Below are positions 5,804 through 31,745 of a stretch of DNA of 64,000 nucleotides, one piece after another (positions within the stretch are counted from its first letter, which is position 1; each line of letters begins with the position of its first letter). The DNA lies in assembly GCA_964416445.1 (NCBI GenBank), contig CAYQEE010000008.1, positions 6,450-70,449 on the forward strand, in the 5' to 3' direction. The notes under the pieces were generated by a model, which saw nothing but the letters and a program-made list of their open reading frames with translations, was not told the DNA's origin and did not search any database. This DNA is from an uncultured Gammaproteobacteria bacterium. GTDB taxonomy: Bacteria; Patescibacteriota; Microgenomatia; Levybacterales; UBA12049. A program made the translations under genes and the position numbers.

Positions 5804-6982
5804 ATGGCAAGAAAAAAAATATCTGAATTTACTGCGAAGTCTCTCTTGTTTTCTCGTCTTGGTATACCATATACAGGAGTGTCTCTTATTGGTACTGATA
5901 CTGTTACTCCCTCAAACTTTGACAAAGATAAACTCTATGTTGTGAAAGTCGATGAAGGTGTTAAAGGAAGGATGAAAAAAGGATTAGTATCACTAAAGGT
6001 TCCTGCTACGGAGATACGAAATAAAATACAAGAATTGAGTGAAAAAGGATATCATCGATTTCTTGTCGAAGAATTTATTCCCCATGAAGCATTCCAAGAA
6101 AAATATTTTTCACTCGAAAGAACACGAGAAGGAATAACAATGTATTATTCTGATAAAGGAGGAATTGATATTGAATCTAACCAACAGACGGTTCAGAAGA
6201 CAATACTTGATAAAAGTACGACTGAATCAGTAACTTCTTTTTTAGGATTATCTCTTACTGCATTTCAAAAAATCATTACTGTTTTTAATGAACTCTATTT
6301 CTCTTTTCTTGAAGTTAATCCTCTTGTTATTACTGAAGACGCGATATATTTTTTAGATCTTGCTGTGGAGGTGGATAGTAGTGCGGAATTTTTTGTGAAA
6401 GATGGGTGGACAGCACTTGATTTTGTTGGGGATGAGCTTTTCGGCCAAAAAACAGAAGAAGAGAAAAATATTATTGCATTGAAAGCAAAAAGCCAAGCAG
6501 CATTTAAATTAGACATGCTTAATCCTCAAGGATCAATATGGATGTTATTATCAGGTGGAGGTGCAAGTATTGTCCTTGCTGATGAGGCATATAATCAAGG
6601 ACGAGGTACTGATGTTGCAAATTATGGAGAATATAGCGGTAATCCGAATCAAGAAGAAACATATATTTACACCAAAAATATTTTAAAGTTATTGCTAAAA
6701 TCACCGGCGCCAAAAAAAGTTTTAATTATTGGTGGCGGAGTTGCTAACTTTACTGATATTAAAACAACATTTGGAGGAGTCATCCGAGCTTTGGATGAAG
6801 TAAAAGATGATCTTGCAAAGCAACATGTCAAAGTATTTGTTCGTCGAGGAGGACCAAATCAGGAAGCAGGATTGCATGCAATGAAAATCTTTTTACAAAA
6901 TGCGCAAATTTTGGGAGGAGTATGGGATCCGTCACTCGTCTTGTCTGATGTTATAACAAAAGCGAAAGAGGAACTTTCGTAA
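5804..6982 (+). CDS. aclB: ATP-citrate lyase small (ATP-grasp) subunit
   Basis: 392 aa. N-terminus MARKKISEFTAKSLL matches the ACLY N-terminus (MSAKAISEQTGKELL). Segments KKVLIIGGGVANFTDIKTTFGGVIRAL and VFVRRGGPNQEAGL align to human ACLY residues in its N-terminal ATP-grasp part. Confidence 0.8.
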   Translation: MARKKISEFTAKSLLFSRLGIPYTGVSLIGTDTVTPSNFDKDKLYVVKVDEGVKGRMKKGLVSLKVPATEIRNKIQELSEKGYHRFLVEEFIPHEAFQEKYFSLERTREGITMYYSDKGGIDIESNQQTVQKTILDKSTTESVTSFLGLSLTAFQKIITVFNELYFSFLEVNPLVITEDAIYFLDLAVEVDSSAEFFVKDGWTALDFVGDELFGQKTEEEKNIIALKAKSQAAFKLDMLNPQGSIWMLLSGGGASIVLADEAYNQGRGTDVANYGEYSGNPNQEETYIYTKNILKLLLKSPAPKKVLIIGGGVANFTDIKTTFGGVIRALDEVKDDLAKQHVKVFVRRGGPNQEAGLHAMKIFLQNAQILGGVWDPSLVLSDVITKAKEELS

Positions 6983-6987
6983 TATAT

Positions 6988-8775
6988 ATGTTAGATATTG
7001 CATTATTAAGACAACAAAAAGAGTATCAGGTTATTGCAATTGGAAGCTATCCAACGGTAATTCAATCAGTTCTTGATTTTGATTATTTATCAGGAAAGGA
7101 AAAACCGAGTATTGTTGGAATCATTGCTGGAGGGAGAAAATCAGAGCGGTACTTTTTTGGTAAAAAGGAGATCCTCATTCCGGTATTTTCGGATGTTGCA
7201 GTAATTCCTGAAAAGTTTCGAAATGAAATAACGTTGTTTATTAACTTAACTTCCGGAAGACGAGTATTCGAAAGTTCTCTTAAAGCAATTGATACCTTTC
7301 CTCATCTGCTTGGAGGAACACTGTTTGCTGAAAATGTTCCAGAACTTCATAGTATCGAACTTTTTAAAAAAACAGAAGAAACAAATACCTTTATTGTGGG
7401 GCCTGCAAGTGTTGGACTCCTTCTTCCGAATGCTTTGAAACTTGGGGCAATTGGTGGTGTCGATATTCGACAGTTAGAGAGTGCCCATTTGTTTACGAAA
7501 GGAAATGTCGCAGTTTTTTCTTCCTCTGGAGGAATGACAAATGAGTTAATTAATATTGTGACGAGTTCCGGAAAACGAATATCTTTTGCGTTATCATTTG
7601 GTGGTGACCGGTTTCCCATTGTTAGTCCTATGGAAGCATTCTTGGCTGCTGAACGAGATCCGGAAACTGAACATATTATCTACTTTGGTGAATTAGGGGG
7701 ATATGATGAATACGAAATAGCACATGCACTAAAGGAAGGACGAATTACAAAACCAGTCATTTGTTATATCGCAGGGGTCATTTCAGATATGTTTCCCAAA
7801 CCTCCTCAATTTGGTCATGCCAAAGCAATGGCAGGGAAAAAAGAGGAAGGAGCAAAAGCAAAACGAAAAGCACTTTCCGATGCAGGAGCAATTGCTGCAG
7901 AATCTTTTGCTGCGTTTGTTGATACGATTGCTGCTTTGCAAGTGCCTCAGTTTGAAGAAAGAGACTTTCGTGGACAAATGCAAGAAATTGCAACGCGACA
8001 ACATGCGCTCATTGCATCAAGTATTTCGAAGGATGTTAGCGGAGAAGTACACATTTTAGGTGAAGAATTACTTTCTTTTACCAAAAATCATTCATTTGCA
8101 TCAAATGTTGCAGCCATGTTTCTTGGAAAGAATAACGTTACAAGCGAAACAGAAGCATTCATTGATTTTATTCTCCGACTATTAGTAGATCATGGACCAT
8201 ATGTATCAGGAGTAATGAATACTGTTGTTACTGCTCGTGCAGGAAAAGATCTTGTGGCATCCCTTGCGGCAGGATTACTAACCGTTGGTCCACGATTTGG
8301 TGGTGCAATAAATCAAGCAGCAGCAAATTGGTTGAAGGGAACTCAGGAAAAACAAGATGCATATGATTTTGTTGAAGCGTTTGCAAGTCGCAAACAATAT
8401 ATATCAGGTATTGGACATCGGAAATATCGCGTTGATTTTCCTGACCCTCGGGTCACCGAAATTCTTCAATTTAGTAATTCGTTGAAAAAAAAGCGGTTTA
8501 CTGATTTTGCTAAAGCTATTGAAAAAGTAACAGTTTCGAAAAAAGGTAATTTGATCTTGAATGTGGATGGAGCAATTGCAGCAGTATTGTTAGATATTCT
8601 TTCAGAAAAAGAAGAAATGGTTGATGCTCAGCTTCAACAACTTGTCGAAACCGAGTTCTTTAATGCATTATTTGTTTTATCTCGAAGCGTCGGATTTATT
8701 GCTCACTTTCTTGATCAAAAACGATTAGATGAAGGGCTTTTCCGTCTTACCGAAAACCAAGTTGCCGAAGCATAA
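6988..8775 (+). CDS. aclA: ATP-citrate lyase large subunit (CoA-binding / phosphohistidine domain fused to a citrate-synthase-like citryl-CoA lyase domain)
   Basis: 595 aa. PVICYIAGVISDMFPKPPQFGHAKAMAG matches the ACLY catalytic His loop. C-terminal LILNVDGAIAAVLLDIL and FVLSRSVGFIAHFLDQKRL match the citrate-synthase-like domain of ACLY. Gene order aclB-aclA as in Chlorobium. Confidence 0.8.
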   Translation: MLDIALLRQQKEYQVIAIGSYPTVIQSVLDFDYLSGKEKPSIVGIIAGGRKSERYFFGKKEILIPVFSDVAVIPEKFRNEITLFINLTSGRRVFESSLKAIDTFPHLLGGTLFAENVPELHSIELFKKTEETNTFIVGPASVGLLLPNALKLGAIGGVDIRQLESAHLFTKGNVAVFSSSGGMTNELINIVTSSGKRISFALSFGGDRFPIVSPMEAFLAAERDPETEHIIYFGELGGYDEYEIAHALKEGRITKPVICYIAGVISDMFPKPPQFGHAKAMAGKKEEGAKAKRKALSDAGAIAAESFAAFVDTIAALQVPQFEERDFRGQMQEIATRQHALIASSISKDVSGEVHILGEELLSFTKNHSFASNVAAMFLGKNNVTSETEAFIDFILRLLVDHGPYVSGVMNTVVTARAGKDLVASLAAGLLTVGPRFGGAINQAAANWLKGTQEKQDAYDFVEAFASRKQYISGIGHRKYRVDFPDPRVTEILQFSNSLKKKRFTDFAKAIEKVTVSKKGNLILNVDGAIAAVLLDILSEKEEMVDAQLQQLVETEFFNALFVLSRSVGFIAHFLDQKRLDEGLFRLTENQVAEA

Positions 8776-19464: not shown

Positions 19465-20385
19465 TTAATTTTGAATCGTTACGCAAGCAGTACCAATATC
19501 TGATCCATTTGCGCTATTATCACCATCATGAACTGTATAAACTGCTAAGTAACTATGTCCGGTGGTTAACCCAAGATTGTTGACGCTGTAAACCACCTCT
19601 GAACCATAGTCACAAATATTACCTGAACAAACGACATTTCCTTCTGCAGGAAACTGATCTGCACCTGTTGGAAGTTGACTTTGATTTTTCGGCTGCGGAT
19701 CTCCTCCGATATTATAATCTTTCCATGTTCCGTAGACAGCGTCAGGGACATGGGGATTTCCTGCATGAACAGCATCAATTGGTTGTCCATTTGGATTAAG
19801 CGTTAAATCGAGTAAAAATAAGGAAGGGAATACATAAAAACCTGCTGGATCTTTAATAGTAGTATCTCCTACACCAACCCCTGGTTGTGATGGAAAAACA
19901 GAATCGACTGGGTGAGTCTTCATTTGAGGTGTTGTTGTTCCCGCTCCCAGTGTCATTGCGTGTTCATCATGATACCAAAATTCTATTTTCCCCCCAGCTG
20001 AAACAGATTGTCCCGAAGGAGGATAAACGGCAAAAACATTCTCAGTTTCTCGTTTTACTCCGAGTTGTTGCAAGAGAGTAGTTATACCAGTTCCACAATT
20101 GAAAGGAACAGTAGTAGGAGAAGGTGAAAGGCTAGATGTTGGCGTTGGAGGAATAGAAATAAATGAAAGCGTTTTTAATTGCAGTGTTGCATGCGAAGGA
20201 TCAGCGGTTGGTGTGACAAGTACATATTTTGTTCCATCATAGGGTGGATTTACTGAATTAATAAATCCTGTTGCTAAGAGAAAAGCAAAGAGTGCAATAC
20301 CTATCAGTACAAATGTTATATATCCCTTATTTGTTTCAATGGATTTTCTTTTTCGAGACATTTTTTTTGTTTTTTGTTTTCTCAT
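19465..20385 (-). CDS. membrane-anchored secreted hypothetical protein
   Basis: Lys/Arg-rich N-terminus then a TM helix (ITFVLIGIALFAFLLA). The rest is extracellular with S/T/P-rich segments. Start placed at an internal Met (ORF extends to 20508). Confidence 0.5.
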   Translation of the reverse strand: MRKQKTKKMSRKRKSIETNKGYITFVLIGIALFAFLLATGFINSVNPPYDGTKYVLVTPTADPSHATLQLKTLSFISIPPTPTSSLSPSPTTVPFNCGTGITTLLQQLGVKRETENVFAVYPPSGQSVSAGGKIEFWYHDEHAMTLGAGTTTPQMKTHPVDSVFPSQPGVGVGDTTIKDPAGFYVFPSLFLLDLTLNPNGQPIDAVHAGNPHVPDAVYGTWKDYNIGGDPQPKNQSQLPTGADQFPAEGNVVCSGNICDYGSEVVYSVNNLGLTTGHSYLAVYTVHDGDNSANGSDIGTACVTIQN

Positions 20386-20472
20386 TACTCTTATGGTAAA
20401 GAAAAGAAGACCTACTTGTAAAGAGGGCCGAATTACCATAAGATAAATATAAATAGCAATAGAAATTAGTCT

Positions 20473-20775
20473 ATGACGCCAACACCCTGCCCACCGAATT
20501 CGACACAAACGGATTTTGGCTGTATACCAAATGATCCGGGAGGTTTTACGTCCAAATTTTATGGTATTGGTTTGGGATTAGTTGCCGCTGCATCACTTCT
20601 TTTTATTCTTTATGGTGGTTATTTAATCATTACTTCACAAGGTAATCCAACACAATTTAATCGAGGGAAAGGGTATGTCTTTTATTCAATCATGGGCCTT
20701 CTTTTTGCTGTTCTTGCAGCTGTTTTTTTCCAATTAGTCGTTGTCGATTTTTTACATATCCCAGGATTTAAATAA
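20473..20775 (+). CDS. small two-helix membrane protein, VirB2/TrbC-pilin-like
   Basis: 100 aa. Cys-containing N-terminal segment, two hydrophobic helices (GLGLVAAASLLFILYGGYLII and MGLLFAVLAAVFFQLVVV) separated by a short polar loop. Stop is directly followed by the ATG of the next gene. Confidence 0.55.
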   Translation: MTPTPCPPNSTQTDFGCIPNDPGGFTSKFYGIGLGLVAAASLLFILYGGYLIITSQGNPTQFNRGKGYVFYSIMGLLFAVLAAVFFQLVVVDFLHIPGFK

Positions 20776-23700
20776 ATGAAAAGAATCTGCCTATTAGTTT
20801 TAATGGTTCTTCTGCTCTTCTTTGGAATATCATTGCATTTCTCTGTTCAGCATTCCTATGCTCAAACACCAACTCCAACAATGGATCCTAATATTGCTGA
20901 TGGTGATTGGTTGCCTGATGCAGATGTTACCTTTCAAGGAAAGACAGCTTCCCGTTCTGCATTGCTGTTAAATCTTGTTCTGAAAAATTATCAATGGGCA
21001 ACCATTGGAGGAGAACAATCATTAATTATTTTCTGGACAAATATTAGAAATGTCGTTTACGCGATTTTACTGCTCGTACTTCTTGCAGCAGCCTTTGCCA
21101 TTATTATTAGCGGAGGAAAAAGTCTTACTGCATGGACCTTCGCGCGAAGGTTTATCATCATGGTTATTTTAATATGGTTTTCGTTTGCGTTAACACGTTT
21201 TCTGTATGAAGTAATTGATATTATTATTGGTTTTTTCAACAGGAATCCTCAAGGAGTTATTATTACCTCAAAAGATCTCTTCAATATGTCGTTTAATTAC
21301 CAAGGGTTTATTGGTCTTCGAAGATTTGGACCCTCATATGACGAATCTGCATTCGTTTCTTTATTGCTTGTGCGACTTACCGCAATTACCTATTATGTTA
21401 TGTCCGGAATTTTACTTGTAAGAAAAATTATCTTATGGTTCTTTATCGCGGTATCACCTATTTATCCATTGCTCTTATTCCATTTTCCTATTCGTAATAC
21501 GGCAAAGATATGGATAGGTGAATTTTTTCGATGGTTACTCTATGCGCCATTATTCTTCATTTTTCTTTCATCCTTAGTTGTTGTATGGCAACATAATATT
21601 GATATTTTTCCATTTCAGTACATACAAAATCAAATTGTTTATCCCACTGCAATTAATATTCTCCTTGGTGGTCCTGGACAACAATTAACTGTTGATAATA
21701 GTGTAAATTACAATGATACCTTTGCCGAGTATGTCATTGCATTGATCATGTTATGGATTGTTATTTTTCTTCCATTTATTCTTCTGCGAATCTTTTTAGA
21801 TTATCTTTGGAGCTTAAATCTTGACAAAGATAATACGCTTGGTTATCTCCAAAATGTAGTGAAAAGAGTTCCCGGAAGTCAGTATATCTTTCCTAATTCA
21901 CCTCTGCCACCAGGAAAATATCCTCCTGGACCACCTCCAGGAACCCATCCCACAGGGATGGCAAAACCAATTTTGTATGGTACAACTGGTCTTGCTCGTG
22001 AATTACCAACTGCAGCAGCGTTAAGCGAACACAAATCTACCGTTAAGGAAATAGCAAAACCAACACAAACACATACTTCAGTAGTGAATAATGTGTATAA
22101 TAACGTGACGACACAAACTCCTGCCTTTAAGTCAGAAAAAACGAGTGTCGAAACAGCAAAATTGGTTAATTTCCCCATTCCTCGAATGCGAGATATTGCC
22201 CATCTTGAAACCAATCGGTCTAGTTCACAAATAACAAAACAGCAACAAATTAGTCGAATGCATGAAACCCTCGAAAAAATTGCAAATCCTCAAAGTATTA
22301 CCAATACAGTAGAGCGGCAACAATTTACTCAACTTCGAGATAAATTACTGCAACAAAGTCAAAAAGGTGAACCATTAGCGACTTCAATATTGAAAGCAGC
22401 AAATACAGTAACGAATCAATCAACCAAATCAGTTATTACGCAATCGACACATGAGACAGTTACCCAGATCCAGCAGATGATCCAAAAAATCAATAATCCT
22501 GAAATCGTAACCGATAATTCACAAAGACAGCAATTTACCGTATTGAAGAACAAACTCGCGCAAGCAAGTAAACAAGGAGACCAATATGCAACAACAGTCA
22601 TGAATATGAAGAGTGAGTCTCAAGTTCAACAAACAATTCAAAAGCTTTCAGCACCACAAACTATTACCAATGCAGTTGAACGTGAGCAATTTACAAAACT
22701 TAAAGCACAATTAATTGAAAAAAGTAAACAGGGAGATACTGTTGCGACGTCTCTTCTTGCTGCTTCAGAAACAGTTGCAAAAGCAAACGAGAGTACGCTT
22801 CCTCAAGCAAATCAAGTGCAAACGGTTAATCTTGAAGATTATGAAGAAGTGAAGAAGACTTGGTTGGAAAACTACAAGAAAATGGAAATTCCTAATACAG
22901 CGGAAAATAAAACAAGAAAAGATTGGATTCAAAAAGACTTACAAAAGATGACAGAAACGATTGACTTATTAAATTCACAAGATCAACAAAAAGTAAGTCA
23001 AGGAATGCAGGAAGTATCACAGTTATTACCATTCTTACTTATTGGTGGTTTCTCACAAACTGAAGTGGTTGCTTATTTACAAGCCAAGAAACATGCAGCA
23101 GAAGAAGCACTGACTCAAATAAAAGATTCTGATAACGAGGAAGACACTATGGTTGATGCAACAAAGAGAGAAGCACATGCAACAAAACATATGCAAGCAT
23201 CGGTAGTGAATACTGCAGATTTTTCGTCAAATAGTGACGATGAATCTGATGAAAATCCACTTTCTAATATTTTACAGGGCTATTCACAAAGAATTCAAAC
23301 AATAAAGAAAGAAGCGCCAAAATTAAAATCCGAACAAACGAGTCAAAAAACATTGAAGCTCCTCAATTTTTCAATACCAACCATTTCAGATATCGCTCGG
23401 TATGAAAGCGCTCCTATTACTGCACAACAAAATGTCCAACAAGAAATGACCCAAGTAAATGAAATGTTGAAGAATCTTGCTTTCCCTGAATCTATCCCTC
23501 AAGAAGATCAAAAACAACAGTTTATTCTCATGAAACAACAATTAGTTGAGTCTGCCCAGAAAGGTGATCCTCTTGCGAACGCAATATTATTTTCAGTCAA
23601 TACCATTTCTCAAACAAACATCATGGCTCAGTCGAATCAGCAATATACTCAGGCAATGAATTCTTTGTTACAAACAATTCAGAAGTTTATTAATCCAAAA

Positions 23701-24483
23701 ATAAGTGCGCAAGATGCTGAAGAAAAACAATTCATGCAAATGAAACAAACAATTACGAATGAAGCTGCGCAAGGAAATCCTTATGCCGCATTTGTTATCA
23801 ATATTGCGGATAAAGTTTCTCAAACGACTCCTGAAAACCAAGGTCAAGTTTCAAATACCGTGCAAGAGTTACTTCTTAATATCTCCAATCCTATGAATAA
23901 TACAAATACTGATCAACAACAATACTATACCCAAATTAAACAGGAATTAGAAAAAAGAAATGCAGCAGGGGATCCCGTAGCAAATGCAATAATGCTAGTC
24001 CTGCCACATATCATACCGACAAAATCAGTCTTACCTCAAACCAATGATGTTCAAACAGTCAATTTAGATGATTATGAAGCGGTACGGAGTATGTGGCATG
24101 ATATTTATAAATCGTCAGAAGTGCCTGCTATCTCTGCAAATCCAAAACCAACAAGACAAGAATGGATTCGAGAAGATATGAAGCACCTTTCAGAAACAAT
24201 GGCCATGTTAAAATCCGAAGACTCAGAAAAAATAGCATTAGGCATGCAACAAGTTGGTAGCTTATTACCATTCTTACTTATTGGTGGTTTCTCACAAAGT
24301 GAAATTGTTGCTTACTTGCAAGCAAAGCAACAAGCAGGAGCAGATGTCTTACAAGAATTATCAGAAAAAGAGGCAGAAGAAGATTCACAAGTAACACTGA
24401 CTGCAAAAAAGAATGAAACCGTATTGAGCCAAGCCCAATCAGAACAACTACCAGAGCAAGAAAGTGAAAAGCATGAGAACTAA
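20776..24483 (+). CDS. large polytopic membrane protein (signal peptide plus about 6 TM, VirB6/TrbL-like topology) with repeat-rich cytoplasmic C-terminal domain
   Basis: 1235 aa. Signal peptide, about six TM helices between aa 90 and 340, Pro-rich segment (PLPPGKYPPGPPPG), then two tandem copies of a roughly 360 aa unit built from about 50 aa repeats. Confidence 0.7.
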   Translation: MKRICLLVLMVLLLFFGISLHFSVQHSYAQTPTPTMDPNIADGDWLPDADVTFQGKTASRSALLLNLVLKNYQWATIGGEQSLIIFWTNIRNVVYAILLLVLLAAAFAIIISGGKSLTAWTFARRFIIMVILIWFSFALTRFLYEVIDIIIGFFNRNPQGVIITSKDLFNMSFNYQGFIGLRRFGPSYDESAFVSLLLVRLTAITYYVMSGILLVRKIILWFFIAVSPIYPLLLFHFPIRNTAKIWIGEFFRWLLYAPLFFIFLSSLVVVWQHNIDIFPFQYIQNQIVYPTAINILLGGPGQQLTVDNSVNYNDTFAEYVIALIMLWIVIFLPFILLRIFLDYLWSLNLDKDNTLGYLQNVVKRVPGSQYIFPNSPLPPGKYPPGPPPGTHPTGMAKPILYGTTGLARELPTAAALSEHKSTVKEIAKPTQTHTSVVNNVYNNVTTQTPAFKSEKTSVETAKLVNFPIPRMRDIAHLETNRSSSQITKQQQISRMHETLEKIANPQSITNTVERQQFTQLRDKLLQQSQKGEPLATSILKAANTVTNQSTKSVITQSTHETVTQIQQMIQKINNPEIVTDNSQRQQFTVLKNKLAQASKQGDQYATTVMNMKSESQVQQTIQKLSAPQTITNAVEREQFTKLKAQLIEKSKQGDTVATSLLAASETVAKANESTLPQANQVQTVNLEDYEEVKKTWLENYKKMEIPNTAENKTRKDWIQKDLQKMTETIDLLNSQDQQKVSQGMQEVSQLLPFLLIGGFSQTEVVAYLQAKKHAAEEALTQIKDSDNEEDTMVDATKREAHATKHMQASVVNTADFSSNSDDESDENPLSNILQGYSQRIQTIKKEAPKLKSEQTSQKTLKLLNFSIPTISDIARYESAPITAQQNVQQEMTQVNEMLKNLAFPESIPQEDQKQQFILMKQQLVESAQKGDPLANAILFSVNTISQTNIMAQSNQQYTQAMNSLLQTIQKFINPKISAQDAEEKQFMQMKQTITNEAAQGNPYAAFVINIADKVSQTTPENQGQVSNTVQELLLNISNPMNNTNTDQQQYYTQIKQELEKRNAAGDPVANAIMLVLPHIIPTKSVLPQTNDVQTVNLDDYEAVRSMWHDIYKSSEVPAISANPKPTRQEWIREDMKHLSETMAMLKSEDSEKIALGMQQVGSLLPFLLIGGFSQSEIVAYLQAKQQAGADVLQELSEKEAEEDSQVTLTAKKNETVLSQAQSEQLPEQESEKHEN
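22123..24393 (+). repeat. Protein-level tandem duplication inside the 20776-24483 CDS: two units, each with an intro segment, three roughly 50 aa repeats and a roughly 120 aa module
   Basis: Unit A about 22123-23175, unit B about 23317-24393. Intro segments TSVETAKLVNFPIPRMRDIAHLE and TSQKTLKLLNFSIPTISDIARYE. Six repeats of consensus L.K(I/L).NP..IT...E..QF..LK..L....KQGD..A...L. The 120 aa modules share QTVNL(E/D)DYE...LLPFLLIGGFSQ(T/S)E(V/I)VAYLQAK. Confidence 0.75.
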
Positions 24484-24504
24484 TATCTTTTCGGAAAGTA
24501 GTTC

Positions 24505-24534
24505 TTGACGTTATTGTTGCACTAAAGCGATAAT
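24505..24534 (+). promoter_or_regulatory. candidate promoter for the Clp-like ATPase gene
   Basis: TTGACG, 17-18 nt spacer, GATAAT, in the 68-nt gap after the membrane-protein gene. Confidence 0.35.
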
Positions 24535-24551
24535 GATATAATATAACTAAT

Positions 24552-27500
24552 ATGTTTAGCGGTTTTTTTAATAATAAAAGACATGAGGATCAGGATTATC
24601 AACAAGTTCCTGTTTATACTGGACAACCGCAACCTATTTCGCCAACAAATCAACCGCAACAACCACAAAGCTCTGGAATTGGATCAACAATGCAACCAGC
24701 AATGCGTGAAGAAGTTACGGCACTCTCTCACTTAGATCCTCGCGCTGTTGAAGTCCTCAATGTTGCGCAGCAAGAAACTTCTCGAATAAAGCAAGCATTT
24801 ATTGAACCAGACCAACTGCTCTTTGCATTACTCTTTGATAAAGATATTTTTAAATTACTTGAACAATTTAATTTAAAAGTTGCTGATGTCTCGAGAGAAA
24901 TTCAAGAGAAAGAGAAAATAGGTACTTTTTTAGGACAACCAACGCTTTCCCAAGATACCAAAAAAATATTTGGGCAGGCATATGGATTAGTAAAAACTCG
25001 AAGTGCTGAATTTATTACTCCAGAAGACTTGCTTATTTCTCTCATGGACGCGAATGTTCCCGCTTCAGCGATGTTGCAAGCGCAAGGACTTGGAAAAGAG
25101 AAAATAGAGGAAAAACTCAATAAATCAGGGAGTACCTATACTGTTGTTAAAAAATCATTTCTAGATAAATTTGGTATCGATTTGACCGAAGCAGCTCGAT
25201 CTGGTGCGCTTGATCCGGTGAGTGAACGAGATAAAGAAGTAGAACGAGTCATTCATATTCTTTTACGAAGAATTAAAAATAATCCGATAATTATTGGAGA
25301 AGCGGGAGTGGGTAAAACTGCTATTGTTGAGGGGCTTGCGCAAATGATCGTACAAGGAAGAGTTCCGGAAGATTTAAAAAACAAACGAATTATTCAAATT
25401 GATGTGGCCTCATTAGTTGCAGGAGCATCGCACCGAGGTGAATTTGAAGACCGTTTGCGAAGTGTTATTAAAGAAGCACAAGCATCTTCTGGTCAAGTCA
25501 TTATTTTTATTGATGAAATACATACCTTAATGGGAACCGGTGATTCAGATGGTGCTCTTGATGCTTCAAATATTATAAAACCATTTCTTGCTCGAGGTCA
25601 GTTGCAGATTATTGGAAGCACAACTACAATAGAGTATCGTCATTATTTTGAAAAAGATAAAGCATTTGCTCGACGGTTTCAAACAGTACTTTGCGAAGAA
25701 CCATCAGAAGAGTCTGCTATTAAAATGATTGATATTTTGAAAGCAAAATATGAAAGATTTCATAAGGTTACATTAACCTCAGAAGCAATTGCAGCAGCAG
25801 TTAAACTCTCGAAAAGGTATATCGGAGAACGGTATCTTCCCGATAAAGCAGTTGATGTTATTGATGAAGCAGCGGCTGATGTGAAGCTTCGTAATAATAC
25901 AGGCAATCAAAAAGGAAATGAAGTGCGAAAAGAAGACATTGATAAAGTTATTAGTAATTGGACTGGAATTCCCGTATCAAAATTGACTGAGAATGAAAGT
26001 GAAAAATTGCTTCATTTAGAGGATATTATTCACAAGCGAATGATAGATCAAGAAAGAGCCGTTAAGTCTGTTGCAGAAGCAGTACGAAGAGGAAGAATTG
26101 GTCTTGCAAATGTCATGAGACCAATTGCATCATTTATTTTCCTTGGACCATCGGGAACGGGAAAAACAGAACTCGCAAAGACTCTTGCTGAAATTCTTTT
26201 TGGTAAAGAGGATGCAATGATCCGTTTGGATATGAGTGAATATATGGAAAAGCATGAAGTGGCAAAATTAATTGGTGCACCTCCAGGATATGTTGGTTAC
26301 GAAGAAGGAGGACAGTTAACGGAAGCGGTACGTATGAAACCATATTCTGTCGTTCTCCTTGATGAAGTAGAAAAAGCTCATCCCGATGTCTTTAATATTT
26401 TATTACAGTTATTGGAAGACGGGAGACTTACGGATAATAAAGGGAATACGATCTCATTTAAAAATACCATTATTATTTGTACTTCAAATATTGGTAGTGC
26501 ATTAATTCAACAATATTTGCAATCTGATATCAGTGCGAAAACAGTTTCTCAAGATACGGCAAGTGATAGCGTAACAAAAAGAGAACAACAAGGTGATTCA
26601 AATGAAAAAAAGGCTCTTGATCCAAATCAAGCACAGAAACCTATCCAAGATAAAGAAGCAAAACAAAAAGAATTGCAGCAATTAGTAAGTGGTGAATTAC
26701 ATAAATTTTTTAGACCGGAGCTTATCAATCGTTTTGATGAGGTTATTATTTTTGAGCCGCTCGGAAGAGAAGTTATGGTAGATATAACAAAATTGCGTAT
26801 TCAGTCTACCCGAAAATTACTTCTTGAGCAAAATATTGATATAGAACTTACTCAGAAAGCGCTTGAAGAACTTGCACAAGAAGGCTATGATCCTGCGTAT
26901 GGAGCTCGGCCACTTCGTCGTTTGGTCCAATCAACTATCGAAACTCCGATTGCCAGTCTTATCTTAGGGAAAAAGTTTGTTGCAGGAGATACGATTGCAA
27001 TTGATTATGATGCAAAAGAGGAAAAATTTGTCTTTACTAAATCGAATAAACCTGCAGGATCGGTTGCTGGAGCACAAGCTCAAGAAGAATTTCCTGTGCT
27101 TCGGGCTGTTTTACGAAAACTTGCTAATCCAAATGTGATTACCGATATGACAGAACATGGTCAGTATTTAGCGTTACGTCAGACAATGGATCAAGCAAGC
27201 AAACAGGGAGATATGTATGCTACCTGGCTATTGAATATTGCGAGTTCTCTTGTACAGACTGAACAAACGAATCCTGCACAGGCAGTGTTAGATCTTAAAG
27301 GAGTGCTCCAAAAATTACTGAATCCTTCGAGCCTTCTTGACCCGAATGAATATCAACAATATGTTACCTATAAAGATCGGTTAACACAGGAAAAAGCAAA
27401 AGGTGATATGCTTGCGAGCGCAATGCTCGATAGTTTACTTTTGGTTGTTTCTCAGCAACCTGCACCGCAACCTATGCAACCGGTTTCGCAACAGCAGGTT

Positions 27501-27725
27501 CAACCCCCCGTCATGCCTGTACAGCCAGTACAAGCGAAAGCACAATATAATCCTCAAACAGAATCAATTGTTAGTCCATTAATTCCCATACAGCAGCCTG
27601 CTGCACCACAACAACCTTCTTCTCCAACACAAAGCTATGCAGATTTATTAGCACAATTTACTCGGAATACTATTCCGCAACCAACTCCTAATATAAATGG
27701 AAGCCAACCTGCACTTTCAAAGTAA
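24552..27725 (+). CDS. ClpA-like Hsp100 AAA+ ATPase with non-canonical C-terminal repeat tail
   Basis: 1057 aa. Q/P-rich leader, double Clp_N repeat, AAA1 ([27 protein letters not shown]), AAA2 ([24 protein letters not shown]). No M-domain between DEAAADV and WTGIPVSKL. No I/L-G-F/L ClpP loop. Roughly 225 aa C-terminal tail. Confidence 0.85.
27090..27449 (+). repeat. Two copies of the same roughly 50 aa repeat family found in the upstream membrane protein, inside the Clp-like CDS tail
   Basis: [52 protein letters not shown] and [48 protein letters not shown] align with repeats such as LEKIANPQSITNTVERQQFTQLRDKLLQQSQKGEPLATSILKAANTV. Confidence 0.75.
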
Positions 27726-27772: not shown

Positions 27773-27985
27773 TTAATAGCCTTGATTGCCAAGGTTTCTA
27801 ATAAGGAGATTATAATCAATACCATTGACAACACCGTCATCATTGATATCTGCAAAGAGTCCTTTTGTTTGATCTGAGAGATTGTGTGCTTTACATGAAG
27901 AACTTGTTGTTTTCATTCCGTAACAATCAACAAGGATATTATAATCAGCTAAATCAACACTGTTGTCATTATTGATATCACCCAT
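27773..27985 (-). other. dockerin domain coding segment (C-terminus of the GH79-like gene)
   Basis: Two 22-residue D.N.D..V...D..L repeats in the last roughly 70 aa. Confidence 0.6.
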
Positions 27986-30163
27986 CCGAAGATTTGTCGG
28001 ATTGACGTTAGTTTTACCGGTGAGTGCAATTGTTTGCCCTAAGCGAATCGATATGAGTTGAGAGGAGAGCAGTTCACGAAGGGAACCTTCCGGAGATTTG
28101 GCTAAGACATAATATGATCCTTGGGGAATTGATGAGAGATCAATAGCATTATTGACAAACGAACCATTCGGATCAGAGGGTGAAAATGAAGCGTTTATGG
28201 TGAGTGTTTGCGTAGGTTTCTGGGTAAAGTCTAGCGAGCGATAGAAAAACAATTGTACCATTCGTTGGGGATGATGAGGATTAGGATTATTTTGTGGATC
28301 AATGCCTTCAAAATGGACAGAGAGAGTACCGATTGCTGGACCAAGCGTTGATGTTCCTGTTGGAGAAGGATTTCCAGTTGTTGTTGGTCCTGTGGTTGGA
28401 CTTTGGGTAAGCGTTGCTGTTGGGGTATCTATTGGTGTGTTTGTTGGCACCGTACTAGGGGTAGTCGTAAGTGTTGGTGTTGCTCCTGTTGTTGGAGTTA
28501 TTCCTTGCGTAATTGCTGTTGTACAAAGTTGTGCATCAGGATCACAAATACCACATGATACGCCTGATTGGTCGCAATCGCTATTTGACGTACATGCTCG
28601 TCCACAGAAATTGCTATTGGTTGGTGATACTGGTTGTGTCGGACTATTCGTTGGTTGTGGAGTATTTGTTGCATGAGGTTGTGTTGGTTGTGGAGTATTC
28701 GATATTTTTTGAGTTGGAGAAGGAGTAATGGTTGTGGTACCGTTTGTATAGGTGACTATTGCCGCACTTGCTGCAGGAACAGTAATTGAAGAATTCGCCC
28801 CAGTTACACTGACTGGTTCTATGGTAGACGGGTTCCATGATCCATCACTTGCGACCGCAGATCCGCCTAACGTAATGCCTGTTGTTGCATTGACTGATGA
28901 TGCTTGTAGGCGAATATCACTTGCATGTCCAAACGATTGTGTTGTATTAATTTGAACCGAAGCAGATTGAGAAAGGTCTTTATTAATTAAAACTACTTGA
29001 AGGTTACCATTCGTATTTCTGATCCCGTAAGCGGTAATATTGACGCCTCCTGTGGAAATTTGAATAGGCAGCATCGTACCATCTGGTGCTGCATAATGAA
29101 ACGCTAACATTCCATAATAGTTAGGTCGAGGAGTATTATTAGAATAAAATATTGAGGTAGCATCACCCGACCATCCATGCACATTCATTCCCGAGGCGCC
29201 CATTTTTGCAAGAGACATAGCATAATCTAAAAGCCAAAGTGAAACACCAAATGCGTCTCCAATATTGGCAGGTGGTACATTTGCAACAGCATTGGTCTCT
29301 CCAAGTTGATACGGTAAATTTTTCGCATGAGTTAATTGCATTCTCGGTTGAAGAGATTGAATGGTTCCTTGCATAAGACTCGGACTTAATAATTGTTGAA
29401 AAGTAGTTGAATTTGCTGTGGGATAATAATGATCTGTTCCCATAACAATTTTTGAACTTTCAGCATTGATAAAAGGAGTATAAAAATCAGAGCAACAATC
29501 GGTTCCTGCTGGACCAACTATTGGAATATTTGTTCCAGCAGCTTGAATTGCAGCCGCTACTGCTTCCCATTTAGTTTGATATTGGCTGTAACTCCATCCA
29601 TATAAGTTTGGCTCATTTCCTATTTCAATACCAATAAGTGTAGATCCTGCTGATTTTGCAACATAGGCAGCATTAGCCGCATCATTTGATGGGTTTCCGT
29701 TTTTTAAATTAACTCCCCAAATAAAACGCCAACCAACTTTTTTAAGAAGAGTAACTGTTGCATCAACCATGGCAGGAGTTTGTACAGTTCCTGACCAGGA
29801 ACAAGAGCCATTCCCTGAAGTGCTCCATGAATCTCCTTCCACAGAATCTCCACCGAATCGAAACGTTGTTGGACCTAAATTTTTAAACATATTTTCTGCT
29901 AATGTGGGATTTTGATTATCTAATACCAATTGTTCACATGGACTATCAGCTGGTTCAGAACTGACTCCAATAAAACCAGTAGGTATAACTGACCCATTAC
30001 TTGCAGGATCTACTGTGACTTGGACATTTGTGCCTGCCGCTTGTTGGTGTAAATTTTGTATATGTTGTGAAAGATAAACCGCTAAACAAATGCCTAAAGT
30101 AATGAAGCAAACTATAGCAATTGTAAGGAACCGATGGTGAATGGGAACAACTAGCGATTTCAT
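27773..30163 (-). CDS. secreted glycoside hydrolase family 79-like (beta-glucuronidase/heparanase fold) with Thr/Pro linker, Cys-rich module and C-terminal dockerin
   Basis: GIEIGNEPNLYG (acid/base NEP), DHYYP, LGETNAV (nucleophile; compare heparanase LGETSSA). C-terminal DINNDNSVDLADYNIL and ADINDDGVVNGIDYNLL are dockerin type-I Ca-binding repeats. Confidence 0.7.
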   Translation of the reverse strand: MKSLVVPIHHRFLTIAIVCFITLGICLAVYLSQHIQNLHQQAAGTNVQVTVDPASNGSVIPTGFIGVSSEPADSPCEQLVLDNQNPTLAENMFKNLGPTTFRFGGDSVEGDSWSTSGNGSCSWSGTVQTPAMVDATVTLLKKVGWRFIWGVNLKNGNPSNDAANAAYVAKSAGSTLIGIEIGNEPNLYGWSYSQYQTKWEAVAAAIQAAGTNIPIVGPAGTDCCSDFYTPFINAESSKIVMGTDHYYPTANSTTFQQLLSPSLMQGTIQSLQPRMQLTHAKNLPYQLGETNAVANVPPANIGDAFGVSLWLLDYAMSLAKMGASGMNVHGWSGDATSIFYSNNTPRPNYYGMLAFHYAAPDGTMLPIQISTGGVNITAYGIRNTNGNLQVVLINKDLSQSASVQINTTQSFGHASDIRLQASSVNATTGITLGGSAVASDGSWNPSTIEPVSVTGANSSITVPAASAAIVTYTNGTTTITPSPTQKISNTPQPTQPHATNTPQPTNSPTQPVSPTNSNFCGRACTSNSDCDQSGVSCGICDPDAQLCTTAITQGITPTTGATPTLTTTPSTVPTNTPIDTPTATLTQSPTTGPTTTGNPSPTGTSTLGPAIGTLSVHFEGIDPQNNPNPHHPQRMVQLFFYRSLDFTQKPTQTLTINASFSPSDPNGSFVNNAIDLSSIPQGSYYVLAKSPEGSLRELLSSQLISIRLGQTIALTGKTNVNPTNLRMGDINNDNSVDLADYNILVDCYGMKTTSSSCKAHNLSDQTKGLFADINDDGVVNGIDYNLLIRNLGNQGY

Positions 30164-30243: not shown

Positions 30244-31653
30244 TTATTCAAGGCAGGTGAACGGATGATCTTTATCTTGCTGGAACATTCCTGCCCATTC
30301 AACAGCGACAAATCCAGTTCGTTGAATTTTAGGCAGGATAGGGAGATCGATTGTTTGTGGGGTATTCACTGGTTGAAAATTTAAGGTGACGCGAAGAAGT
30401 GTATCAGGAGTTGGACTAATCGTTAAGGGAGAAATATCGTTCAATACTTGTTGAGGAACAAGAGAGATTATGTAGTAAGGTGAGTAAGGTAAGGCGGTTA
30501 ACCAATAGTCGCTAAATTGTTTTTGCTCATTTGCATTTAAACCAAGTTTTGGCAAGAGTGTCGAGAAGAAGTTCTTCAAATCTTTGTATGCTACATTATA
30601 CCCAGTATTTTCTTTTGGAATAAGCGAATTTGGAATTGCTGCTTCGTAGTAGAGATAATCATATTGGGTATGCTCATAGGTAATAGTTCCGTTAGGATTT
30701 CCGAGAATGTTCCATCCTGTTTGTGGATATACCGGAATTGTTGTATTCAGTTTTCCCTTTGGATTTATTTTTACATTGATTGGTTCGGAAACTTGCGGAT
30801 ATAAATAGAGAGCTGGTTTACAAAATGGCCTTGGAAATCCGACTGCTGCACCACCCTGCGTGAAATCAAAGGTATGTAATTGTAACGTCTCATGTGATGG
30901 AAAAGGAGTTATTTGTAAAATAGCATTTGATTCATTTCCTCTTTGTGGACCACCGGTTGGAGATAAATTTGGTGCTGGAGGTGTAATCGTTATGCCATTA
31001 GCTGCGAGACAATTTTTGATTGCATTGGGTACACCAGGTGTTGGATAATCTGGATCTCGAAAATAAATATCAAAACGAGAAGTGCTATTTCCATACACTT
31101 TTGCCGTAGGGTCACAGGAATTATCAGAAGGAGTATTGCCAAAAGGTTTCATACAATTGGCAACACAGACATAAATTAGCTCATCATCAGGGATTGGCAA
31201 GCATTGTTTTGTTCCACTGCTCCAATCTGCAAGTTGATCATATCCTGGTGTTCTACACTCTCCAGGACCACCAGCTAATTCTTGCGAAGTACTCATTATG
31301 ATGGGATGAGGCCCATCTGGATAAGTTGCGACTTGTCCACTATCAGCACTATGTTTAAAACATTGAAAAATAGAACTATTTGATTTCAACAAGTCATACT
31401 GAACTGGTACGTTTTTATATTGTGGATACGTTAATGAAGTAGGTGAACTAAAGGTAATTGTTTTAGTTTTAATTGGTGAACAATCTGCATTATCACAGCA
31501 AACAGCAAGAGGGTTGGGTAAAGGTGCTTTCATAAAAACATTCGTAAAGAATAGTCCACCAGCAATAAAAATACTAAAAATAACAACTGCTATAAGAATT
31601 AATCCTTCAATACTACTTGAACCTTGCTGATCAAATTGGTAAATTCTTTTCAT
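30244..31653 (-). CDS. secreted hypothetical protein, possible type IV pilin-like N-terminus
   Basis: Start placed at MKRIYQFDQQG/SSSIEGLILIAVVIFSIFIAGG (Gly then Glu at +5 then a hydrophobic helix). Remainder Cys- and Pro-rich and extracellular. The ORF extends to 31728 but that would abut the divergent gene. Confidence 0.45.
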   Translation of the reverse strand: MKRIYQFDQQGSSSIEGLILIAVVIFSIFIAGGLFFTNVFMKAPLPNPLAVCCDNADCSPIKTKTITFSSPTSLTYPQYKNVPVQYDLLKSNSSIFQCFKHSADSGQVATYPDGPHPIIMSTSQELAGGPGECRTPGYDQLADWSSGTKQCLPIPDDELIYVCVANCMKPFGNTPSDNSCDPTAKVYGNSTSRFDIYFRDPDYPTPGVPNAIKNCLAANGITITPPAPNLSPTGGPQRGNESNAILQITPFPSHETLQLHTFDFTQGGAAVGFPRPFCKPALYLYPQVSEPINVKINPKGKLNTTIPVYPQTGWNILGNPNGTITYEHTQYDYLYYEAAIPNSLIPKENTGYNVAYKDLKNFFSTLLPKLGLNANEQKQFSDYWLTALPYSPYYIISLVPQQVLNDISPLTISPTPDTLLRVTLNFQPVNTPQTIDLPILPKIQRTGFVAVEWAGMFQQDKDHPFTCLE

Positions 31654-31745
31654 AAAAATCATGAACATTTTGAAAATGTTCCTTCTTCCATAGTATCGAT
31701 CAGTTAGCAAAAATACAAGGGTATGCAATGATATACTATGGAGAC

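Follow-up and report, generated by a model that had tools for sequence, protein, structure and literature searches.

Introduction

When a membrane protein and the unfoldase encoded beside it carry copies of the same rare repeat, do the two proteins act together? This question is raised by a three-gene locus in a 64,000-nt stretch of DNA (contig CAYQEE010000008.1 of GenBank assembly GCA_964416445.1, positions 6,450 to 70,449 of the forward strand), which we analyzed at its full length and call the window. The locus encodes a small pilin-like protein, a large membrane protein and an ATPase of the Hsp100 type. A preliminary description of the window had proposed that the two larger proteins share one repeat family and that the ATPase might dock on the tail of the membrane protein. 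Our own analysis points, tentatively, to one functional unit: a membrane platform derived from a type IV secretion system (T4SS), with the unfoldase tethered to its cytoplasmic tail. Judged from sequence comparison, this reading seems quite possible to us, if short of probable.

The earlier suspicion that the host belongs to the Candidate Phyla Radiation was borne out, since all of the more than 780 homologs of the membrane protein were found in metagenome-assembled genomes of Patescibacteria (labels Levybacteria/Microgenomates, Saccharimonadales and Parcubacteria). Taxonomic labels were taken over from the database records; in the species scan, many titles are clearly wrong in reading 'uncultured Gammaproteobacteria'.

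Results

A repeat shared by the membrane protein and the adjacent Hsp100

The locus consists of three open reading frames (ORFs) on the same strand:

20473-20775, + strand: pilin-like gene, 100 aa (ORF; Pfam T4SS_pilin PF18895, E 4.8e-5)
20776-24483, + strand: membrane-protein gene, 1235 aa, predicted VirB6-fold domain followed by a long modular helical tail (ORF)
24552-27725, + strand: Hsp100 gene, 1057 aa, two AAA+ rings and a repeat-bearing C-tail (Pfam, NCBIfam, PDB relatives)

The stop codon of the pilin-like ORF abuts the start codon of the membrane-protein gene, and 68 nt separate the latter from the Hsp100 gene. The repeat occurs six times in the membrane protein (m1 to m6) and twice in the Hsp100 tail (c1 and c2). 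All eight copies align gap-free over 56 columns with P17, G43 and A47 invariant, so that the repeat consensus and the copy number given beforehand were both correct. A hidden Markov model (HMM) built from the six membrane copies alone matches the Hsp100 copies with independent E-values (i-E) of 2.8e-13 (c1) and 2.5e-9 (c2), while the best match among the other 389 six-frame ORFs of the window has an E-value of 0.15. The reverse model, based on c1 and c2, finds five of the six membrane copies (E 1e-5 to 4e-12). Thus the reciprocal tests demonstrate one repeat family common to both proteins, beyond what chance would give.

The Hsp100 protein sequence is identical in two sources, NCBI and Logan, and at the DNA level no repeat links the Hsp100 tail to the membrane-protein gene. 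An assembly chimera or a recent duplication was thereby ruled out; because of the lack of DNA similarity, we regard the sharing as old and not as an artifact.

The preliminary description had named a profile search as a check, and a promiscuous coiled coil as one outcome that would speak against the idea. Against 1.84 billion representative proteins, the repeat profile gave 164 matches at E <= 0.001, nearly all of them belonging to the membrane-protein family. Among 120 matches that had not been listed before, 79 have a VirB6-like domain, 25 are tail fragments bearing the CM domain described below, and two have a Clp core; the rest are mostly short fragments, with two unrelated weak matches. 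Given this rarity, the repeat is family-specific and not promiscuous, and the coiled-coil explanation was rejected. Each of the 120 listed homologs of the membrane protein carries 3-15 repeats.

Conservation of the gene order in a heat-shock context

Synteny was assessed in a sample of one genome per species, comprising 80 loci with ±10 kb of flanking sequence plus five further loci. All counts stem from six-frame ORFs and phmmer matches to a few query proteins, not from curated annotation. The Hsp100 gene lies directly downstream of the membrane-protein gene in 58 of 71 evaluable loci and one gene further downstream in another seven; in three loci it is found upstream of the pilin array, and in three it is missing. 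Consequently, the co-localization in relatives, which the preliminary description had asked to be checked, was found in 68 of these 71 loci. The pilin-like gene is directly upstream of the membrane-protein gene in nearly all loci (91 orthologous pilin ORFs were detected at this position), and L071, L077 and L078 have arrays of two to three pilin genes there.

Two arrangements prevail. In 32 loci the order is hrcA-grpE-dnaK-dnaJ-pilin-membrane gene-clpB, and in 25 it is hrcA-grpE-dnaK-pilin-membrane gene-clpB-dnaJ, which places the trio between dnaK and dnaJ. An HrcA operator resembling CIRCE (controlling inverted repeat of chaperone expression), with at most three mismatches and within 400 nt upstream of hrcA, is present in 43 of 61 loci. 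The trio is detached from the dnaK operon in the window, and so it is in the nearest relatives, L001 and L084. The gene order of the trio is held in both operon arrangements and in the detached state as well. The order of pilin, VirB6-like gene and Hsp100 gene is thus conserved across Patescibacteria, usually inside an HrcA/CIRCE heat-shock operon. This setting in most relatives, which was not part of the preliminary description, is the strongest contextual clue.

Modular architecture of the tail

The tail of about 850 aa is made of two super-modules of about 400 aa each, one a duplicate of the other. Each comprises a short motif (LxNFxIPxxxDIAxxE), three repeats and a helical CM domain of about 115 aa:

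22159-22209, + strand: short motif opening module 1 (KLVNFPIPRMRDIAHLE; family alignments)
22240-22407, + strand: repeat m1, aa 489-544 (alignment and HMM, as for m2 to m6)
22450-22617, + strand: repeat m2, aa 559-614
22606-22773, + strand: repeat m3, aa 611-666
22801-23145, + strand: CM domain copy 1 (CM1), about 115 aa (QTVNLEDYE...LLPFLLIGGFSQTEVVAYLQAK; HMM search and alignment)
23356-23406, + strand: short motif opening module 2 (KLLNFSIPTISDIARYE; phmmer self-match of aa 842-868 to an N-terminal query)
23437-23604, + strand: repeat m4, aa 888-943
23647-23814, + strand: repeat m5, aa 958-1013
23842-24009, + strand: repeat m6, aa 1023-1078
24034-24390, + strand: CM domain copy 2 (CM2; HMM search and DNA repeats)

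In the short motif of module 1, P469 and D473 are invariant across the membrane-protein family, and R472 and A475 are nearly so. The repeat itself is predicted to form a helix, an NP turn, a second helix, a G(D/N) turn and a third helix that continues into the next repeat. Structure prediction drew on an alignment of 57 sequences. The model of the tail module aa 452-795 is all-helical, with a predicted local distance difference test (pLDDT) score of 84. Besides the hydrophobic core, the polar positions E25, R26, E27, R33, E34, E39, S40, G43 and N44 of the repeat are conserved. No significant Pfam, NCBIfam or PDB sequence match and no specific PDB fold was found for it, only generic helical matches; the earlier impression that the repeat corresponds to no named domain therefore stands. 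Some family members have 18-25 copies (P0121 with 2790 aa and P0012 with 2147 aa), and tail length ranges from about 300 to more than 2000 residues across the family, which makes the tail highly expandable.

The CM domain follows the pattern QTVNLxDYE...LLPFLLIGGFSQxE..AYLQAK, many residues of which are invariant. CM1 and CM2 are linked by two DNA direct repeats, named D1 and D2, at 78-88% identity. An HMM search detected the domain in 221 proteins, all within the membrane-protein family. It was considered as a second element common to both proteins and rejected, as none of 120 Hsp100 homologs contains it. Searches for a PDB sequence relative, a specific fold match or a significant Pfam match of the CM domain gave no result, and its start shows a sub-threshold match to Pfam DUF7441 (E 0.012).

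The membrane domain and the pilin-like protein

Ahead of the tail, the large protein has two further regions:

20776-21870, + strand: VirB6/TrbL-like membrane domain, aa 1-365
21871-22128, + strand: proline-rich, low-confidence linker, aa 366-451 (pLDDT below 50 for aa 389-452)

The membrane domain begins with a signal-peptide-like helix (aa 1-26) and an outside segment (aa 31-81), after which the AlphaFold2 (AF2) model places five long membrane helices (82-112, 119-154, 186-236, 240-272 and 313-346). The predicted domain shows the three-dimensional fold of VirB6, and its closest structural match is the VirB5/VirB6 stalk complex. At the level of profiles, Pfam TrbL (PF04610) does not match the window protein at E <= 1; seven of 18 members of the membrane-protein family do match it (best E 2.7e-6), and precomputed PF04610 or PF19590 matches exist for a few homologs. 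On the evidence of the model, we assign the VirB6 fold to the large protein. It had been called channel-like before; more specifically, it is a protein of the VirB6 fold.

In a five-pass reading, based on hydropathy and the AF2 model, the charges of the loops conform to the positive-inside rule, and the tail comes to lie inside. In contrast, a six-pass reading, in which helix 186-236 counts as two passes, breaks the rule in two loops. We infer a cytoplasmic tail from the five-helix topology together with the positive-inside rule, and from the fact that its repeat also turns up in a cytoplasmic ATPase.

VirB4-type Pfam families were found neither in the scanned ORFs of the window nor in the annotated loci L001, L003, L084-L086 and L055, and the neighbors of the membrane-protein gene are chaperone genes, not T4SS genes. 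Since VirB4 and other T4SS genes are not nearby, we term the domain VirB6-like and do not treat it as part of a T4SS.

The small upstream protein matches Pfam T4SS_pilin with 23.8 bits, which is under the gathering score of 26.6, and the NCBIfam model of the Mbov_0395 pilin-like conjugal transfer protein with E 7e-4 and 19 bits (cut-off 40); its ortholog in L003 matches T4SS_pilin with E 0.002. It has a short Cys-containing N-tail, two transmembrane helices with the basic loop NRGKG between them and a conserved C-terminal IPGF(K/S). This form fits the VirB2 type: about 100 aa, two hydrophobic helices, a short basic loop and an adjacent VirB6-like gene. A signal or leader peptide is absent, and the ORF is not extendable upstream, with an in-frame stop one codon before the ATG. 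As in most orthologs, the ORF begins about 25 residues ahead of the first membrane helix; a few orthologs (L036, L077) have a signal peptide. By these profile matches and this form the protein classifies as a VirB2-like two-helix membrane protein, in line with the VirB2/TrbC-like character proposed previously.

An Hsp100 of a distinct subfamily

The ATPase is organized as follows:

24552-24716, + strand: P/Q-rich N-terminal extension, aa 1-55, ending in GSTMQP (sequence; orthologs alike)
24729-25151, + strand: Clp N-terminal domain, aa 60-200 (Pfam Clp_N; aligns from ClpC residue 5)
25158-25901, + strand: AAA+ ring D1, aa 203-450, Walker A GEAGVGKT (aa 249) and Walker B IFIDEIH (aa 318)
25917-26756, + strand: AAA+ ring D2, aa 456-735, Walker A GPSGTGKT, Walker B LLDEVEKA and pore loop GAPPGYVGY intact
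26496-26708, + strand: polar loop of D2, aa 649-719, where ClpA/ClpC have their ClpP-docking loop
26760-27002, + strand: D2-small domain, aa 737-817 (Pfam ClpB_D2-small, E 1.3e-23)
27081-27248, + strand: repeat c1, aa 844-899 (HMM of the membrane copies, as for c2)
27276-27443, + strand: repeat c2, aa 909-964
27444-27722, + strand: P/Q-rich distal tail with short motifs, aa 965-1057 (motifs also in the repeat-less L001 ortholog)

Its Pfam domains are Clp_N, AAA, AAA_lid_9, AAA_2 and ClpB_D2-small. The Walker A and B motifs of both rings and the D2 pore-loop Tyr are intact (aa 249, 318, 532, 602 and 575). Nevertheless, the protein stays below the cut-off of every curated model compared: 880.3 bits against 1232.1 for the ClpB equivalog TIGR03346, 701.3 against 993.15 for the ClpA equivalog TIGR02639 (PRK11034: 544 against 1350) and 673.6 against 884.95 for ClpV/TssH (TIGR03345). 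It also stays under the curated cut-offs for ClpK and ClpG. The best PDB sequence relatives are ClpC of S. aureus and ClpB.

No M-domain was found: the ClpB profile match ends at position 400 of 853, and the alignment with ClpC skips the M-domain of the latter. The median spacing from the D1 lid to WTGIP is 30 aa, which is ClpA-like (106 of 120 relatives have both anchor motifs), and the previous description of the ATPase as ClpA-like in architecture is upheld. The ClpP-docking tripeptide [ILVM]G[FLM] is present in the D2 loop of none of 119 family members, the loop of the window protein being polar and about 70 aa long. In the D1 pore loop, all of the 120 closest relatives (P0241-P0360) have a His where ClpB and ClpC have a Tyr, while the D2 pore loop is canonical; this exchange suggests that D1 departs from the usual way of gripping substrate. 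Because the M-domain, the ClpP tripeptide and the D1 pore Tyr are all missing, we place the ATPase, by its sequence features, in a distinct subfamily outside ClpB, ClpA/C and ClpV. Within the family the D2 loop varies from 33 to 228 aa and the C-tail from 5 to 562 aa, both being disordered.

Two short motifs were noticed in the disordered regions. A G(S/T)xMQP motif ends the N-terminal extension just before the Clp N-domain, and in many Levybacteria orthologs (tails in L004-L083) the P/Q-rich C-tail ends in a similar DGTQMQP. Such MQP-type motifs may be short linear docking or autoregulatory motifs.

Repeated capture of the repeat by Hsp100 proteins

Among the 120 closest Hsp100 relatives, five carry the repeat, the window protein included, and no Hsp100 gene of the 80 scanned species loci has it, even next to the membrane-protein gene. 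A universal docking device was therefore rejected as an explanation of the repeat (it is lacking in those 80 loci and in 115 of the 120 relatives). Of the docking idea put forward in the preliminary description, the shared repeat remains, but not its use as a general device.

The five proteins differ in where they carry it. In the window Hsp100, the first of the two copies starts 27 residues past the D2-small domain. P0248 (77% identical) has two copies in the D2 loop between TSNIG and FKPELLNRFD, that is, at the position of the ClpP-docking loop, whereas P0295, P0332 and P0348 (55-57% identical) have four to seven copies in the C-tail. P0248, P0295 and P0332 adjoin a membrane-protein gene; for P0348, what lies upstream on the contig is a truncated product of 217 residues, given as protein without DNA. 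Other Hsp100s that are 70-75% identical to the window protein, including the L001 ortholog, lack the repeat but have the distal tail motifs. The nearest relatives of Hsp100-borne copies are usually membrane-protein copies and not the Hsp100 copies of other clades. Hsp100-borne copies are 30-45% identical to any tail copy, and the invariant Pro is kept in all 14 of them; positionally orthologous repeats of P0332 and P0348 are 47-69% identical. This pattern speaks for at least two captures of the repeat by Hsp100s, probably three as the simplest history, with two of the three proposed captures falling within one shallow clade at different sites. Every one of the insertions is on the same side of the ring, the D2 (exit) face.

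Neighboring genes and other features of the window

Upstream of the trio, a 347-aa membrane-anchored protein is encoded at 19465-20508 (- strand). Its listed TTG start overlaps the start of the pilin-like gene by 36 nt; a later start (MRKQKTKK..., about 20385) is likelier and leaves a divergent intergenic region of about 88 nt. Within the 68-nt gap before the Hsp100 gene, a sigma-70-like match (TTGACG-18-GATAAT, 10/12) lies at 24505-24534 (+ strand). It is a mere lead toward separate transcription of the ATPase, since the promoter and terminator scan of the window gave site counts equal to the shuffled expectation and is uninformative. Rfam and tRNA scans of the window gave no match.

Downstream of the trio, the product of 27773-30163 (- strand) is a secreted protein of 796 aa that combines a GH79 C-terminal beta domain with Thr/Pro-rich linkers and a type I dockerin; dockerin and cohesin-like genes are nearby in the L084 locus, too. 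Two genes downstream of the trio, at 30244-31728 (- strand), a 494-aa secreted protein without Pfam match is encoded. By eye, and unscored, it is similar to the L008 ORF 12270-13658, which fills a gap of about 1.4 kb between the membrane-protein gene and clpB; six further loci have a gap of this size. Further away, at 5804-8775 (+ strand), two adjacent ORFs of the ATP-citrate-lyase type (Citrate_bind plus ATP-grasp N-domain; citrate synthase plus CoA-ligase) were found, which is unexpected in a genome this reduced.

In relatives (L003 16329-20140 and most of L004-L083), clpB is followed by a conserved protein of about 110 aa without Pfam match and then by a second Hsp100-like ATPase (about 800 aa, degenerate D1, no Clp_N), often together with a VWA-domain protein. 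None of these three is present in the window. Genes for secreted subtilases were also observed beside the trio. One with a Pfam-confirmed Peptidase_S8 domain directly follows the membrane-protein gene in L055 (13384-16798), and ORFs in L069 (13344-16690) match it, known by size and position alone. In L085 (12646-14379) and on the P0348 contig, subtilase genes directly follow the repeat-tailed Hsp100. These subtilases could be a cargo or a processing enzyme.

Discussion

How might the three proteins work together? If they form one unit, the tail would serve in the cytoplasm as a scaffold and bring the Hsp100, and probably the DnaK system too, to the platform. In the organism of the window, the Hsp100-borne repeats would pack against those of the tail, with the exit pore of the ring facing the platform. 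By ATP-driven threading, the ring could then pass unfolded polypeptide or pilin subunits on to the VirB6-like platform, where they would be exported or assembled, and a geometry of exit face to platform would thus fit substrate threading toward it. The recruitment step is the part of this scheme that we hold most firmly, while direction and substrate are its weakest parts. The envelope-spanning apparatus for export or extraction that the preliminary description saw in the locus is a hypothesis.

Several points weigh against this scheme. The genes hrcA, grpE, dnaK and dnaJ are absent from the 64-kb window, which also lacks a CIRCE element within three mismatches, and conserved operon membership signifies co-expression, not contact. 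Most adjacent Hsp100s do not carry the repeat and, because of that, docking in general would need another element, candidates being the CM domain, the short motif, the Clp N-domain and the short conserved motifs in the disordered tails of the ATPases. Neighboring genes swap segments more readily than unlinked ones, so that repeated capture is weaker evidence here. The cytoplasmic place of the tail hinges on helix 186-236 being a single pass, since six passes would put the tail outside, and the long, flexible tail weakens the argument from ring orientation. Finally, with no VirB4 or other T4SS parts nearby, channel or pilus activity of the VirB2/VirB6-like pair is an assumption.

A bolder version, which we consider improbable, would see in the trio a so far unrecognized protein-conducting machine of Patescibacteria: a conduit derived from VirB6/VirB2, co-regulated by HrcA and driven not by VirB4/VirD4 but by the cell's own Hsp70 and Hsp100 through the giant repeat scaffold. 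If true, such a conduit could export effectors to a host bacterium or import host proteins, as in the parasite translocon or the organellar motors compared below, respectively. This would amount to a new class of system for secretion or uptake, with a central place in epibiotic life.

Among the alternatives, one dispenses with any contact between tail and Hsp100. The repeat might instead bind a third partner, such as DnaK/DnaJ, non-native clients or the cytoplasmic loop of the pilin, which would make the tail a membrane-anchored multivalent holder. An Hsp100 bearing the repeat would gain the same partner, and this could offset its missing M-domain. That the cluster lies between dnaK and dnaJ or right after both in 57 loci is consistent with this idea, as are the lack of the M-domain throughout the Hsp100 family, the conserved polar repeat positions, which could form a binding surface, and the fact that most Hsp100 orthologs function without the repeat. 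However, the repeat has no similarity to known Hsp70-binding or client-binding domains, and the Hsp100-borne copies have lost several of these conserved polar residues (c1 has H26, G27, Q34 and A39). As the partner itself is hypothetical too, we regard this explanation as doubtful, though it survives better than those that follow.

The sharing could also have no function at all. Local illegitimate recombination might have copied a stable helical spacer into the neighboring gene, where disordered regions of the Hsp100 tolerated it, with the gene order reflecting shared heat-shock regulation or accident. Both insertion sites are indeed disordered and variable in length, gene adjacency favors segmental transfer and most orthologs do without the repeat. 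Yet the copies in Hsp100s are old, judging from their low identity and the lack of DNA similarity, and have kept fold-defining residues in 14 of 14 cases, and the positional orthologs of P0332 and P0348 have been retained. Moreover, capture recurred in separate lineages for the repeat only and never for the CM domain, and the gene order has been kept across two operon arrangements and after detachment from dnaK. A mere by-product of recombination therefore appears rather unlikely to us.

Least probable of all is an assembly machine for a pilus or stalk, in which the VirB2-like subunit would be assembled on the VirB6-like protein as in R388, with the Hsp100 taking the place of VirB4 to dislodge pilin from the membrane or recycle it and the tail only positioning the ATPase: translational coupling of the VirB2-like to the VirB6-like gene, the pilin gene arrays of L071, L077 and L078, the lack of VirB4 in the annotated loci and the stalk complex as closest structural match fit well, but AAA+ unfoldases pull substrate into the cytoplasm, which is the opposite of pilus extrusion, the pilin offers a cytoplasmic loop of only about 14 residues to grip, a heat-shock operon is an odd place for a pilus system and no VirB5-like tip protein was identified.

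Comparison with Known Systems

A T4SS-derived platform with a tethered Hsp100 would matter beyond this locus. Patescibacteria make up a large share of bacterial diversity, have tiny genomes and live attached to other cells, and their exchange of macromolecules with hosts is largely obscure. The trio provides a second VirB2/VirB6-like pair, unlinked to VirB4 and wired into the core heat-shock operon of a whole clade together with an atypical Hsp100. The 55-aa repeat and the 115-aa CM domain were defined as new domain families, along with a distinct Hsp100 subfamily, and the hypotheses are open to work with recombinant proteins without culturing the organism. The cluster is not described in the literature that we searched. 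T4SS-like genes are among the few shown to be essential in Patescibacteria, and a 2025 survey of their T4SSs does not mention chaperones and states that VirB6 is hard to detect in Microgenomatia (PMC12102498). The parts of the trio are of known kinds. What appears to be undescribed is the way they are combined, together with the two domains of the tail and the Hsp100 subfamily.

The closest known systems are VirB6/TrbL and VirB2 of conjugative T4SSs (R388 TrwI, PDB 7o3v/8rt9; Legionella DotA, PDB 9ngy). In contrast to these systems, no VirB4, VirD4, VirB3, VirB5 or VirB8 genes are near the window trio, whose setting is in or beside a heat-shock operon. In addition, the repeat tail of 850 aa, which reaches about 1700 aa and once more than 2000 aa in relatives, has no known counterpart in T4SS proteins. 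A similar design is presumably found in the RvhB6 paralogs of Rickettsiales and in TcpH of Clostridium perfringens, where a VirB6-type domain is followed by a long C-terminal region that we take to recruit partners. These proteins are encoded in recognizable T4SS or conjugation loci with VirB4/VirD4-type ATPases. We know of no such repeat and no Hsp100 partner for them.

From the perspective of the ATPase, two bacterial systems invite comparison. ClpA, ClpC and ClpX dock ClpP via an IGF/IGL/VGF loop, and the repeats of P0248 occupy the D2 loop that bears the tripeptide in ClpA/ClpC, on the face used for a downstream partner. However, the inserted element is a folded helical pair of about 110 aa and not a short hydrophobic tip, and the cluster has no clpP. 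With the DnaK-ClpB bi-chaperone, the trio has in common the heat-shock operon (hrcA, grpE, dnaK, dnaJ), the double ring and the Clp N-domain. In contrast to ClpB, the Hsp100 described here lacks the M-domain that couples to DnaK, and the D1 pore Tyr is replaced by His in all of the 120 relatives.

Membrane-bound chaperones are known from organelles. Tim44 with mtHsp70 on TIM23, and Tic110/Tic40 with Hsp93 (ClpC) on the inner envelope of the chloroplast, are cases in which a membrane scaffold tethers an Hsp70, an Hsp100 or both to the ATP-containing face of a protein-conducting channel. These motors pull proteins toward themselves, that is, they import, and their components are unrelated to the trio. 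By analogy, the embedding of the trio between dnaK, dnaJ and clpB suggests a similar logic of tethering, whatever the direction of transport.

The best functional analogy for the proposed geometry is, in our view, PTEX, the Plasmodium translocon of exported proteins (HSP101-PTEX150-EXP2; PDB 6e10/6e11). There, a ClpB-type double-ring unfoldase without a protease partner is docked on a membrane pore, to which it turns its D2 face, and drives unfolded proteins across. HSP101 and the window Hsp100 are related in sequence (E 1.3e-144). On the other hand, EXP2 and PTEX150 are unrelated to the VirB6-like protein, HSP101 keeps its M-domain, and docking in PTEX was established by structure, whereas docking here is read from the genes. 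If the coupling proves physical, the trio would be the first case of a bacterial ClpB-type unfoldase stationed on a secretion-type membrane platform, and this would explain why its Hsp100 can dispense with both the M-domain and ClpP docking.

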